From Candidatus Saccharicenans subterraneus (GTDB lineage Bacteria; Acidobacteriota; Aminicenantia; Aminicenantales; Saccharicenantaceae), in NCBI GenBank assembly GCA_003426165.1, contig QUAH01000009.1, positions 64,620 through 128,619 on the forward strand: a stretch of DNA of 64,000 nucleotides, written 5' to 3'. The notes beneath the pieces were generated by a model. It was not told the DNA's origin and did not search any database. It saw nothing but the letters and a program-made list of their open reading frames with translations. Shown here in pieces: positions 35,191 through 42,536 of the stretch (the first letter of the stretch is position 1; each line of letters opens with the position of its first letter). Made by a program: the position numbers and the translations under genes.

Positions 35191-38100
35191 CTACAGATCT
35201 AGCAGCTTGATGGTCTCGGCATAGACCAGCCTTTTGTACTTCTTGTGGGTTACCGCAGCCACGGTCCGGGCCGCCTTGTCCACCTCGTCCGTGTCAAACA
35301 ACTCGTATTCCCTGACGGCGATCCTGTAATCCTGTATCTTCAGACCGGAAGGAAGCTTGAGCGTTCCCTGCCAGATAAAAGAACCTACCTCGCTCGCCCC
35401 GGCCCTTTGCGGTTTAAGGATGACTGCCGCATCTTTGACCGGCTCCCAGCCCAGCTCGTCAGGCAGGTTGGGTTTCTTGTTTTCCAGGACTGCTTCCACC
35501 TCTCCCGGCCCGCTTCCGGCATAACCCTGGATGTAAGAAACCCCGGAGAGAGTTATGTTGATATCGCTCAGCTTGGAAGGATTGAAGGAGACTGAGAGAT
35601 TCCTTTCCGGAAGTATCTGGGCGAAATTGGCTACCACCACCTGGGAAAGATGGGCTCCCGGCACTGAATTGGGCTGGAACCTGGCCAGGGCCAGCCTGAT
35701 GAACGGGAAGTAAGCCTGGCCGGAGTCGAGCTCCAGGTCGCAGAACCACAGCTGCCTTTCTTCATCGTACTCAACCTGGTGACCGACGGCGATGAATTTC
35801 TTCTCGTCCGGCATTTCCAGCAGGGGCAATTCTCCCATAACCTCCACGGCTGATGGGAAAGCATCGGGTAGCGGATATTCGGGCGGAGCTACCGGTCCCG
35901 ACCGCCAGATGGGGTCGGCTCCCCACATGGTAACGTAAGGCTTGTATTTTTCCGCCACCGGTGGGACGCTGACCTGAAGACCAGCGGCCACAGTTTTTCT
36001 CTGGAGCTGGGGTTGGATCTTCTGAGAAGCCAGGGTAGGTCCGGTAGAGCTTGCAGGAGCGGCCATTGGTTTCTTCGGAGTAATGGTGAGGCCCGGGGGC
36101 AGGATTACTGCCAGCAGCTCGCCTTCGCCCGTTGAATACCACGGTCTTTCTAGGTAGATGCGGAGGCCGCTTCGCCTGACACTGGTAATTTGTGAGCCTT
36201 TTTTGCTCCTTTCCCATTTAAAAGAAGGCACCACATAGACAACCTTGGGCATGGCCGGGGGTGCGGTGTTCAGCACCTTGACTTCTACCGGCTCGCTCGT
36301 CCTGGTATATCCGGTCTCTTCGGGCAGCTCGTTTGAGGGGAATTGCTCCATGTACCTGGTGGTGGTGACCAGCCGGTAATTTACCCTTCTGAACTTGGTA
36401 TCGCCGAATTCATGGCGGTAAACTGGAGTTTGCGGGGCTTTGACCATGGCCACGGTGGCCGCCCTGGTTTGAAGTTGAGCCGCTCCAGGTTGAGTTACTT
36501 CCTTTCCAGCCTCTGGCCTTGGAGTCAGAGTCAGCGAGGTCATGACCGGTTCTATTTTGAATTCCAGCACGTGAGCCTTACCATCCAGAACTCGTGGCCC
36601 GGGCTCATTAAGGTAATCCACCGGTTCTTTCCAGTCGGCCAGGAGCTCGGCCTTGGAAGTGCTCTGGCCGTGCAGCGCAAACTCTCCAAAGAGAATTGCC
36701 GAGGTCTGGCCCAGGCTTCTCTGGGCTTCGAGTGACTTGTTGACGGGTTTGCCCACCGGTTGCAGCGTGGCGTGCATCAGGGTAATTTCCCGGAACGGGG
36801 TCATCAACCAGTTGCGTCCCTGGAGCGAGAGGGTCCTGACTTTAGTCAGGTCAATCCGCGGTGGCTGCAGGGTTTTCAGGACCTGGACCTGGCCTTCGGG
36901 CAGACCTCTTGGCGGTTGCATTACCTTTTGGGGAATTATCCTGTCTGGCTTTTCCAGCCAGCGGTAGAGTCCCTGGATGGGCAGGAATCTTTCCGGAAAA
37001 TAACAGCTCAGTCGCAGGGTTACCGATTCGCCTTTTTTCAAATAAACAGTCAGAAGGCGGGCCGAGTTATCCCAGCGGGCCGGCTGGCTGCCTTCCTGGA
37101 GCCTGATCCTGAACGGTCGGAAATCCGGCCAGTCGCCTGAAAATTCAATCAGCATCGGGTCGGGTGCTCCGTAGGGCAATCCACGAATACAGGCCCCCCG
37201 GGCCCAGGGATCCGGAAAGTAGGGTAGCTCAACCTGCTCGCCGGGCTCCAGTTCCTTGAATTGTCCGCCGTCTCTCTGGCAGATCAGGGAATAGACTTCA
37301 GGCTTCAAGCCGGCTGGGCCATCGAACATCCCGTGAAACTCTGAATCCAGCTGGGAGATTTTTGGCGGGGCCACATGGCGGTCAGAAACCTGGTCGGTGG
37401 GAACGGTATCCTTCTCGATGGATTCGTTGAAGCTCTTGATGACCAGGTGGTCAACATTCTCCCCGCTTTTCGGCACTTCCCTGGGAATTATTTGCGGGGA
37501 GGGCACCGGGTCGAACCGGGAGAAGATGAAGGGTTGCCTGGAAGGCGACGGAATGGCGCAGCTGTCGTCCGGATTTTCCAGGGGCTGGCTGTTTCCGGCC
37601 AGGTCCACGGCCCGGGCTCTCAGCCGGTAGCCGACTCCATACCGCAGTCGCGGCAGCGACCCTGGTTTTGGCCTGAATCTCGTTTCCAGCAGGAAATCTG
37701 TCATGGCCTTGTTTTCGATGGCTTGAGGGGTGTCGTTAGGGTCAATCGTTTTTCCGGGGCGGGGAGCCACCAGGCTCCAGCCGTCCCAGTGGAAAAGGGA
37801 TTCATGGGCGAAGATGTCGTCGGATGATTCATCGGCCGATTGAGTTACTGCCGGAGAAATAAAACCCTCGTCTTCCAGGGTTAACTCGCGGCCTGTCCTG
37901 AGGAACCTGTAGGTCCCGATACGCTGGCAGAGGGACCGCCATTTCCCCGACTTCTCGTCCCAGACGTCAACCCGGTAGCCCTGGATCAAATCCTCGGCAT
38001 ACAGGGTTATTTCTTTTCGGCGTACCAGGTCATTATTAAGTTCCACGGCTCGAACCAGGACTTCGGCAATGTTCTTGGCCTGCTCATTTCTCACCACACC

Positions 38101-42100: not shown

Positions 42101-42536
42101 AGGCCAGCCGGCTCGGCCCTGAAATCCTGGAAAAAACCGGCGGCGGTTTTGGGGTCTCTGATTCGGCCGGGGTGCTGGCCTCGTAAAAAGCTTCTTCGGC
42201 GATGCTCTGTGGGGGGAAGTGGACGATGAGATAGGCCGGCTGCGAGGCGTTCTCTCTGACCAGGTGCGGCCGGGGCAGGTTCACCAGTTTGAGGTTAAGG
42301 AACTCAAAATCCAGGTAGAGCAGGTCGTCCGGTCTGAAGGCTTTAATCAATAGTCCGGTCTGGGGCAAAGCTATCTGTCTCTGCGGGATTACCTTTTTCT
42401 GAATCTGCTGTAGCTGGCCGATTACCGGTGTGGCCCCGAGGATGCCGGCGTAGGAGAGGAATTTTCTCCGGGAGATTCGTCCGGGTTTCGTATCCATTTG
42501 CCCTTCTTTCTTTTTCCTTGACTCAGGGTCGGTCAT
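39198..42536 (-). CDS. giant hypothetical protein (1112 aa) with twin-arginine (Tat) signal peptide and a Gly-rich hydrophobic C-terminal segment
   Basis: AGGAG RBS 7 nt upstream. N-terminal SRRKFLSYAGILGATPV is a Tat motif. C-terminal AMFGGGGFFAIVLQPHGIKLIEGALEFGGSFAMNIGVASGGVTLMAGIYF. No known domain recognized. Confidence 0.8.
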   Translation of the reverse strand: MTDPESRKKKEGQMDTKPGRISRRKFLSYAGILGATPVIGQLQQIQKKVIPQRQIALPQTGLLIKAFRPDDLLYLDFEFLNLKLVNLPRPHLVRENASQPAYLIVHFPPQSIAEEAFYEASTPAESETPKPPPVFSRISGPSRLAFLIPDEIKEIPLTLESLLAWHLYQPSLVPVALPPYVPGQTAPKTVQPKTGTPAASTRSLLTQTGPSTQTLYLKQSKLSQAQVSATLRATLKPAQPEKFQTAIEMPYRLILSPNAYNVWLHTAGATSTAGWTELWHTRLAALNPDGTVSESDSPYLAVRAVWSPDVDLDNLVGPDPEHKARPRLSLDPNDRHQIVHLSSNFTLRNPDKSAYEPRPVKVNRLMLSPLGAWLDSIGNWSPMSPLSVVTWQHLATMGRDHFVKVVYKGYLLPFGHRAALVKETERKFYKGKDGQNIAYLFQKKYIVIRDPDRSFPAPFQQYDGREVPFRLVRITTRKTPPLDPPENTQVLPDSGQQAFWPKVGGQDFRFHVIATDQEGHEVEFRMPMVFVENFYAFNQSKLNQVIGAYNSKSNTPVDRRKPDLMGQSISFAPEKKKGDTTFETDSLTWQVVEARPNSSPAAFEMQDQPMCFPALEEADIAIPALKNLVGFDSTRVKYAEAYIKNGLSPSGNKGELIFQVLNPPRLDFAAGGKAEKSGGIATPSFSIVGLSRILGPVGAGLAESVPDPVAQAAGALNDIVAGKFDPKKFFSDQAKILGGILLQDVIDQINDFTSPANTGKALTIKNEQVYESDGKTPAGIKTMLKWTPSVHDVLIFIANRDGTKSTLTLNVEAINYFNGKESTYKVKGELTDFTLDLIKGITTFILVKFSKFTFTAEKGKKTDVDPKIASIDFQGPLKFIKELLDKIPLPGGFSDADGGFGGKPIVKVDASGARLGYALSIPDVAFGVFTLQNLKFTGEIHLPFTGDPVALRFAFNEKNNPFLVTVAMFGGGGFFAIVLQPHGIKLIEGALEFGGSFAMNIGVASGGVTLMAGIYFKYEDDALTLTGYVRCTGELDVLGLISISAEFYLALTYEEASNRVWGQASLTVKIKIVFFSIKVTLKVEREFGHSPAPLFCDLMEEKDWLAYCEAFA

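Follow-up and report, generated by a model that had tools for sequence, protein, structure and literature searches.

What kind of system is encoded by two giant, adjacent bacterial genes whose products belong to no annotated protein family, and on which side of the membrane would it act? The question is raised by a 64,000-nucleotide stretch of Candidatus Saccharicenans subterraneus (contig QUAH01000009.1, positions 64,620 to 128,619; the whole stretch is called the window below), in which we followed up a prediction made earlier from the sequence alone, hereafter the original prediction, concerning the gene pair that we refer to as A and B. The analysis firmly supports A and B as co-functioning proteins of a large, ancient and unannotated family, and the pair probably forms an exported envelope or delivery complex of a new kind. 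The two genes and the spacer between them are arranged as follows.

39198..42536, minus strand: gene A, an open reading frame (ORF) of 1112 aa (122.5 kDa), the signal-bearing subunit, of an unannotated family
35191..39183, minus strand: gene B, 1330 aa (149.1 kDa), the signal-less partner, of an unannotated family
39184..39197, minus strand: intercistronic spacer between A and B, 14 nt, holding the ribosome-binding site of B (AAGGAAGG)

A and B are a co-transcribed, tightly spaced operon. The original prediction of two co-directional ORFs with a 14-nt gap containing a ribosome-binding site was reproduced in both coordinates and spacer. The spacer reads AAGGAAGGACCACC, with the purine-rich ribosome-binding site 5–12 nt ahead of the ATG of B, and the spacer has an estimated median length of 14 nt across 70 loci. 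The GC content of the two genes is 57–58% (57.9% for gene A) compared with a window mean of 52.9%. Neither protein is repetitive, as had been proposed: no tandem or internal repeats were found in A or B.

The family to which the pair belongs is large. More than 826 clusters of A homologues and more than 222 clusters of B homologues were recovered in a word-indexed search, and a full hidden Markov model (HMM) scan of 1.84 billion representatives, each standing for a cluster at 50% identity, returned 6405 members of the A family at E ≤ 1e-3 and 3491 at E ≤ 1e-30. Relatives are encoded by at least 536 stretches of GTDB species genomes. An identical A protein is encoded on DYEK01000034.1 of assembly GCA_020717815.1, and the close homologues come from genomes named Candidatus Saccharicenans (Aminicenantes/Acidobacteriota). 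Across phyla, A and B are conserved end to end at 33–40% identity with dozens of invariant residues, and the pair lies far beyond chance.

The linkage between the two genes was surveyed by tblastn with A and B against 80 retrieved loci and three others. In about 70 of the 72 loci with a continuing contig, the gene that directly follows A on its strand is B. The exceptions are L042, which has a flank of only 2.5 kb, and L047; at L057 and L058, B begins 21 nt past a longer A. The adjacency, whose absence would have counted against the original prediction, extends over many phyla. The hosts belong to Acidobacteriota, Armatimonadota, Chloroflexota, Bacillota, Actinomycetota, Cyanobacteria, Nitrospirota, Bacteroidota, Chlorobiota/Ignavibacteria and Pseudomonadota, and include Paenibacillus, Cohnella, Symbiobacteriaceae, Cyanobium, Geobacter and Caballeronia. 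Copies on plasmids or chromids occur in the Bacillus cereus group, Rhizobium/Sinorhizobium, Cupriavidus metallidurans CH34, Diaphorobacter and Streptomyces. The Aminicenantes copies share synteny with carAB and a photolyase gene. All-against-all clustering of 810 flanking ORFs yielded no third conserved gene. The pair is a self-contained cassette that is inherited vertically within Aminicenantes and is patchy elsewhere.

The only flanking-ORF cluster that spans several clades was rejected as a conserved neighbor, since it is most likely a wrong-strand reading of the N-terminal extension of long A variants. These long homologues (1400–1800 aa; L022–L042, L057–L058 and L084) carry, after the twin-arginine (RR) signal, an extra N-terminal region of ~400–500 aa in which the motif '...RVAFKLGGKERWVIDTRRFGGSP...' occurs; this region lacks a Pfam match, is absent from the A of the window and is most likely the source of the spurious cluster in 13 loci. 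Two full A+B cassettes on different contigs of one metagenome-assembled genome (MAG), the Symbiobacteriaceae MAG SMAG_U4756 (L022 and L080), are paralogous copies. At L088:15933-19160, an RR-positive locus on a plasmid of Streptomyces sp. NBC_01334, the annotated B starts ~765 nt after A, is 1075 aa long and lacks the conserved WTALPNG N-terminus; it may have a mis-called start or a pseudogenized 5' end, or may be a divergent B.

Archaeal occurrences of A, in Methanothrix, Methanomassiliicoccaceae and Nitrososphaerales MAGs, were treated as uncertain. The A genes of L050 (a Syntrophorhabdus bin) and L052 (a Methanothrix bin) are near-identical, with identical N-termini, so at least one of them is probably mis-binned, which places the archaeal occurrences in doubt. 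The same caution applies to L028, L035 and L078; in L028, the Nitrososphaerales copy, a 'SRRQFLKIVGGAAIVAGG' signal is clearly present.

Neither protein could be assigned to a characterized family. Searches of A and B against Pfam, NCBIfam, PADLOC and PHROGs gave no match except a sub-threshold TAT_signal match on A, and searches against all PDB sequences, with phmmer and with profile hmmsearch, gave nothing meaningful. When 36 A and 34 B diverse homologues were scanned individually against Pfam at E ≤ 1, no recurrent family was found beyond TAT_signal (PF10518), which weakly matches 4 of the 36 A proteins (best E = 0.0029), the A of the window not being among them. Fold searches with A and B revealed no hydrolase or adhesin fold apart from generic fibronectin type III (FN3) sandwiches, and a comparison of the A profile with the B profile showed the two to be unrelated. 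Thus, the remote homology to a characterized family by which the original prediction could have been overturned was absent for both proteins in HMM, profile and fold searches. A phage origin found no support: tblastn of A against 50,697 phage records produced zero matches, and PHROGs was also negative. Literature searches on twin-arginine translocation (Tat) hitchhikers, giant Tat substrates, polymorphic toxins with Tat and the host clade turned up no description of the A/B family. We regard the family as new relative to known families and systems, and its mechanism is one that we infer.

The first clue to that mechanism lies at the N-terminus of A.

42414..42536, minus strand: Tat-like signal region of A, residues 1–41, identified from the sequence; low predicted local distance difference test (pLDDT) score in the structural model
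42456..42473, minus strand: S22-R-R-K-F-L27 motif of A, identified from the sequence

The N-terminus, MTDPESRKKKEGQMDTKPGRISRRKFLSYAGILGATPVIG, contains the S-R-R-x-F-L motif, followed by a hydrophobic h-region, YAGILGATPVIG. An RR motif together with a hydrophobic stretch is carried by 85 of the 120 A homologues that match best and, in a further set of 133 representatives, by 61. In Aminicenantes, the motif is fixed as [ST]RR[KREQT]FL[SY], with a variable n-region preceding it, and it is present in every full-length close homologue listed (P0001–P0057) except P0041. Classic signals with an AxA site occur elsewhere in the family, such as SRRELLRMAGIAAVMTSLAPVARA in Symbiobacteriaceae, SRRTLLGLAGAATVGLSPAARA, and VSRRLFLRYSGAAGIAAAAAV...SAARA on a Streptomyces plasmid; cleavage-site endings of homologues include '...APVARA' and '...SAARA'. 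RR-positive A proteins are found in both diderm and monoderm phyla. Signal-less A proteins are encoded in Phototrophicus, Saccharothrix, Kitasatospora, Bordetella genomosp. 9, the Bacillus cereus group, Paenibacillus, Anaerolineae and Acidobacteriaceae; in Kitasatospora, an in-frame stop codon lies just upstream. Good support exists for the predicted Tat targeting of A, both here and in about half of its family, and the signal is a conserved but facultative family feature. The use of Tat rather than the general secretory (Sec) pathway by an apparently cofactor-less A hints at folding or assembly before export.

Protein B presents a different picture. It is composed of FN3/Ig-like β-sandwich domains and an α/β N-terminal region, and is conserved from its first residues, MxxQTIxWTALPNG...LRLSVxVSPRL, in 54 of 54 aligned homologues. 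No signal peptide was found in the B of the window or in any of these homologues and, because the N-terminus is conserved from residue 1 among them, B can be said never to have one, in agreement with the original prediction. No transmembrane-like segment or hydrophobic helix was found in B. B homologues keep a core of ~1300 aa, to which some add further domains, variable at the C-terminus (decorated B, below):

Big_3_5, in Saccharothrix, Streptomyces and Kitasatospora
an internal LamG insert, in Phototrophicus and Anaerolineae
PG_binding_1
PG_binding_1 with PLD, in Kitasatospora (2215 aa)
a C-terminal Peptidase_S8, in six clusters (~2230 aa), Bordetella genomosp. 9 included
pAdhesive_15

The added domains are of types typical of extracytoplasmic proteins, and their C-terminal position suggests that the C-terminus of B is its working end. 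The B of the window consists of the core only, with no appended domain, and most family members are likewise undecorated. To see whether Tat limits the size of B, its length was compared between loci: 6 of the 43 that are RR-positive encode a B longer than 1500 aa, as do 11 of the 28 that are RR-negative. This comparison is biased and was not relied on, because loci had been added to the sample for being decorated.

Several further observations concern B and its operons. In Streptomyces sp. Go40/10 (L091:12566-15930), the operon continues with Big_3_5, PG_binding_1 and M23-peptidase genes; on an untyped metagenome contig (L093:9324-11198), an M64 peptidase gene follows B; and an actinomycete locus (L003:14517-16385) belongs to the same signal-less, decorated-B branch with accessory operon genes. 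The depositors of B homologue P0310, from an Acidobacteria MAG, named it 'putative Outer rane channel' (sic; apparently 'Outer membrane channel'), which is unverified, as is a weak C-terminal match of B homologue P0243 (Streptomyces canus) to Terpene_syn_C_2 (25.6 bits).

The structure of A was modeled with AlphaFold2 from a 53-sequence alignment (pLDDT 79.2; predicted template modeling score, pTM, 0.67). The model is almost all-β, with most of residues 60–700 above a pLDDT of 90, and has the following parts.

40257..42359, minus strand: β-rich core of A, ~residues 60–760, carrying motifs that define the family: FPPQxIAE, ELWHTRL and GRDHYVxVVYKGYLxPFGH
39276..39827, minus strand: C-terminal amphipathic β-meander of A, residues 904–1087, ~12 strands of 6–19 residues
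39480..39656, minus strand: Gly-rich block of A, FGGGGFFAI...EFGGSFA...GVASGGV, at the center of the meander
39201..39254, minus strand: C-terminal helix of A, residues 1095–1112, ending ...DWLAYCEAFA; residues 1095–1098 and 1101–1111 are helical in the model

With the exception of one 5-residue strand, the strands of the meander have alternating faces, hydrophobic on one side (Kyte-Doolittle +2.2 to +3.7) and polar or small on the other (-2.7 to +0.75). The Gly-rich stretch at its center (residues 961–1019) is the most hydrophobic 19-residue window of A (Kyte-Doolittle 1.97) and contains the invariant or near-invariant G970–G973. This stretch had been proposed as a membrane-insertion or anchor element: it is real, hydrophobic and embedded in an amphipathic, barrel-like meander, but the model shows it as β-strand rather than as a helix. 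In the C-terminal helix, W1104, Y1107 and F1111 are invariant, and A1110 and A1112 nearly so. The closest structural matches of the meander are outer-membrane barrels, with a similarity that is generic and extends over ~180 residues. Weak Foldseek matches of A to lipid-binding sheets, namely those in MTP, lipovitellin and P47 (TM-score ≤ 0.08, or ≤ 0.12 with E ≥ 1e-4 over the wider set of lipid-binding sheet proteins compared below), and the match of one A-family member to Vit_b-sht_shell (E = 0.19) are near noise. The model firmly supports a tail of A that is amphipathic and membrane-barrel-like, and the folds of A and B, which were modeled confidently and have no whole-chain PDB match, are novel.

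These observations lead to a best-supported mechanism that we put forward tentatively, as a leading candidate still short of probable: A and B would be assembled in the cytoplasm and exported by Tat through the signal of A, with the tail of A membrane-associated and B displayed or delivered. In such a scheme, A would be made with its N-terminal twin-arginine signal and exported in a folded state through Tat; its C-terminal ~185 residues would form the barrel-like β-meander, associating with or inserting into a membrane, and its conserved β-rich core would be the platform that binds B. B, translated right after A from the common mRNA, would assemble with A in the cytoplasm, leave it with A as a hitchhiker, and serve as a scaffold of several sandwich domains that works through its C-terminal end. 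We infer a physical A–B complex, plausible co-export of B by hitchhiking, membrane insertion of the tail of A, and for B a role as an effector or binding protein that faces outward. That Tat can export heteromers of which a single subunit bears the signal is established, PaoABC (PMC4273604) being one case, and export of a heterodimer by Tat is noted in the Tat study PMC10924467.

A number of observations weigh against this mechanism. The first concern the signal itself. The original prediction had spoken of a textbook Tat signal; the S-R-R-x-F-L motif is there and is conserved in the family, but the A of the window scores 13.3 bits with TIGR01409, below the cut-off of 16.7, its h-region is short (12 residues) and it has no AxA site. 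Moreover, 30–54% of A homologues lack any signal. The second concern the cargo: A and B together amount to 272 kDa, and long RR-positive variants would exceed 350 kDa, well above the ~150 kDa quoted for Tat cargo (PMC6708511), and no cofactor-binding domain that would explain the use of Tat was detected with Pfam or NCBIfam. The third concern the barrel-like tail: Foldseek aligns A to barrels with low TM-scores (≤0.3), the C-terminus of A is a helix (...CEAFA) and not the β-signal of outer-membrane proteins, and the same tail is present in monoderms, which have no outer membrane (Bacillus, Streptomyces and Chloroflexota). Finally, in 5 of 5 decorated-B pairs checked, those of Kitasatospora and Bordetella included, the A partner has no RR signal, and the accessory M23, M64 and peptidoglycan-binding proteins of two decorated-B operons have no signal peptides either. 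Since an RR-less A is combined there with a signal-less B that bears extracellular-type domains, Tat hitchhiking cannot be the general export route of the family; in the RR-less, decorated lineages export, if any, would have to proceed by some other route, and signal-less lineages in general would need another route or a different mode of action.

A broader proposal, which we hold to be distinctly unlikely, is that the pair is a self-sufficient two-component export or delivery system of diderms and monoderms alike, in which A would be a barrel-like conduit or anchor and B a passenger with exchangeable effectors, Tat being used in about half of the lineages. If so, it would include the largest Tat cargos known (270 to >350 kDa) and the first large, cofactor-less, all-β hitchhiker pair.

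Among the other explanations, the one that survives best is an antagonistic delivery module resembling binary or polymorphic toxins, with A as a membrane-inserting translocator, B as a passenger with exchangeable effectors, and Tat as one exit route of several. It partly overlaps with the hitchhiker mechanism, from which it differs on function and target, and we consider it possible but on the unlikely side. The architecture of B is consistent with it, as the conserved ~1300-aa core is joined to a variable C-terminal Peptidase_S8 (6 clusters), PLD with PG_binding_1, PG_binding_1 alone or pAdhesive_15; yet the B of the window has no appended effector, and what follows it is a convergent photolyase gene and not a small immunity-like gene. 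Signal-less M23 and M64 peptidases and a peptidoglycan-binding protein in the two decorated-B operons mentioned above (in Streptomyces and on the untyped metagenome contig) would also suit such a module, but no known toxin or trafficking domain is present in A or B. The cassette is self-contained, sits in unrelated neighborhoods, is found on plasmids of the Bacillus cereus group, Rhizobium, Streptomyces and Diaphorobacter, and is present twice in one MAG (L022 and L080), whereas the Aminicenantes pair lies in conserved core-chromosome synteny and its end-to-end conservation, at 33–40% identity across phyla, is unusual for fast-evolving toxins. The gene order also recalls that of cdiB-cdiA, in which a barrel protein precedes its passenger.

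A further possibility is that A alone is a Tat substrate. B would then stay in the cytoplasm as a partner protein (a regulator, say, or a factor for assembly or chaperoning) or reside in another compartment, and the two would be linked only by co-expression. We think this improbable. It would account for the size problem, since A at 122 kDa is within the known range of Tat cargo and A plus B is not, and for the lack of a signal on B in every lineage. Dedicated cytoplasmic partners encoded beside Tat substrates are also known, redox enzyme maturation proteins being an example. However, B is bigger than A and made of FN3/Ig-like sandwiches, its peptidoglycan-binding, adhesive, subtilase and Ig-like fusions elsewhere fit a location outside the cytoplasm, and it remains linked to A where A has no signal.

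Still more doubtful is an intracellular conflict or defense system, or another cytoplasmic machine, in which the RR motif would be incidental or serve for membrane tethering and the amphipathic sheet would line a lipid or ligand cavity. Many lineages do lack a signal on any component, but RR motifs that come with a proper h-region and an AxA site have turned up independently in many phyla. On the B. tropicus plasmid pBEMB20-1 (L086), the pair is flanked by genes for HNH endonucleases, a helicase and an HD protein, and caspase-WD40, nSTAND/nSTAND1 and GmrSD/GmrSD_C genes lie near actinomycete copies; this neighborhood evidence is anecdotal because no neighbor is conserved. On the other side, neither protein has a PADLOC match, by which known anti-phage defense systems would be recognized, or an NTPase, nuclease or sensor domain, and the pair is absent from phage genomes and PHROGs. 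The weak matches of A to the MTP, lipovitellin and P47 sheets and to Vit_b-sht_shell, which would fit a lipid cavity, are those already described as near noise. Besides L086, the copies with such conflict-type neighbors are those at L091:17349-20566, L003:23327-24503 and L089:1-407.

An artifact or an ordinary case, namely one gene split by a sequencing error or frameshift, or a glycoside hydrolase or adhesin missed by annotation, is extremely unlikely: the ORFs are co-directional and only 14 nt apart and the host clade is saccharolytic, with a GH38 mannosidase in the window, but the split-gene reading, which the original prediction had named as a way to refute it, is excluded because some 70 loci of many phyla have A and B as distinct genes, each with a start and a stop of its own, no A–B fusion was found among the top matches, the two profiles are unrelated, and Pfam, NCBIfam, PDB and fold searches gave no hydrolase or adhesin fold beyond the generic sandwiches.

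The surroundings of the pair in the window add little to these considerations. The features concerned are the following.

42537..43048, no strand assigned: intergenic region upstream of A, 512 bp, 43.2% GC, AT-richer
43049..43798, plus strand: methyltransferase gene, divergent from A, with which it shares the 512-bp region
22739..26815, plus strand: GH38 α-mannosidase gene, 1358 aa, with CHB_HEX_C/Fn3_assoc domains, unrelated to the pair

The 512-bp region is the divergent promoter region common to A and the methyltransferase gene. The original prediction had called it an unusually long, AT-rich region; its length and composition hold, but 'unusually' is overstated because other parts of the window are richer in AT, the lowest-GC stretches lying near 51.5–52.0 kb (37%) and 45.8 kb (38%). 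No Rfam family matched this leader, no minus-strand sigma-70-like site was found in it, and promoter and terminator counts from consensus scans equaled the shuffle level. Downstream of B, a 252-bp spacer separates it from the convergent photolyase gene. The genes adjoining the pair encode the photolyase, a DUF4382 protein, the methyltransferase, a glyoxalase and an extracytoplasmic function (ECF) sigma factor, none of which is functionally suggestive. The window is core chromosome, with gyrB, gyrA, rpoD, dnaG, carAB, the GH38 mannosidase gene and two tRNAs. That the GH38 ORF can be annotated indicates that large proteins of the window are otherwise annotatable. No Tat component was seen among annotated large ORFs and called genes within 10 kb of the pair, no search having been aimed at tatA or tatC.

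The ECF-type sigma-70 gene (198 aa) overlaps a downstream 101-aa ORF by 4 nt, the two together occupying window 44646..45544 on the minus strand. The C-terminal half of the product of this ORF is hydrophobic, and the two genes could be a sigma/anti-sigma pair. They lie 2 kb upstream of the A–B cassette on the same strand.

The A–B cassette, with its ~6,400 A representatives in more than ten phyla and on plasmids, has no Pfam, NCBIfam, PADLOC or PHROGs model and no solved relative, and no description of it came up in the topical literature searched. Cultured hosts are Cupriavidus metallidurans CH34, Paenibacillus mendelii, Phototrophicus methaneseepsis and members of the Bacillus cereus group and of Streptomyces, among others. 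Should the delivery reading prove correct, the cassette would constitute a new export route for signal-less proteases, lipases and wall-binding modules, common to Gram-positive and Gram-negative bacteria.

We compared the pair with the known systems that it calls to mind. In gene order and architecture, A–B recalls type V two-partner secretion (TPS) and contact-dependent inhibition systems (TpsB/CdiB with TpsA/CdiA) and autotransporters. However, no POTRA, Bac_surface_Ag or ShlB Pfam match typical of Omp85/TpsB proteins was found in A or in 36 homologues, and B, unlike a TpsA/CdiA passenger, has no Sec signal and no Haemagg_act/TPS match. With outer-membrane barrels and the β-domain of autotransporters A shares strands with an amphipathic dyad repeat, but it lacks a C-terminal β-signal, carries a Tat-type rather than a Sec signal, has no Autotransporter or OMP Pfam match, and has homologues that are not restricted to diderms (Bacillus, Streptomyces and Chloroflexota). 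In every feature by which CdiB–CdiA and the autotransporters are defined in sequence (POTRA, TPS, Sec signal, β-signal and restriction to diderms), A–B differs from them.

The likeness to polymorphic and binary AB toxins lies in the conserved N-terminal core of B, which in some homologues is joined to exchangeable C-terminal enzymatic or binding modules, and in a cassette that is likewise self-contained, patchy and sometimes plasmid-borne, with one component that may insert into membranes. In contrast to such toxins, the A–B of the window has no trafficking, pre-toxin or toxin domain and no immunity gene, and the family is unusually conserved across phyla and mostly undecorated. Lipid-binding β-sheet proteins (MTP/lipovitellin, the N-terminal domain of LptD and TULIP/P47) possess large amphipathic antiparallel sheets, as A does, and are, with no sequence relationship to A, a lead only. 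By these comparisons A–B is a member of none of the families considered.

By analogy, the pair appears to be most like a Tat hitchhiker pair, yet it falls outside the size range of the known cases. As in HyaA–HyaB, DmsA–DmsB and PaoABC, the signal is on one subunit and the tightly linked, co-transcribed partner is signal-less, an arrangement that implies cytoplasmic assembly ahead of export and for which one-signal heteromers described in PMC4273604 and PMC10924467 are precedents. Known pairs of this sort are redox enzymes that contain cofactors and reach about 150 kDa (PMC6708511), whereas A–B has a combined mass of 272 kDa, all-β or novel folds and no recognized cofactor-binding domain, and about half of its family is signal-less. 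Should the hitchhiker reading hold, Tat would carry cargo about twice as large as its accepted limit, and the passage of very large folded complexes through a membrane could be studied with A–B as a natural substrate free of cofactors.

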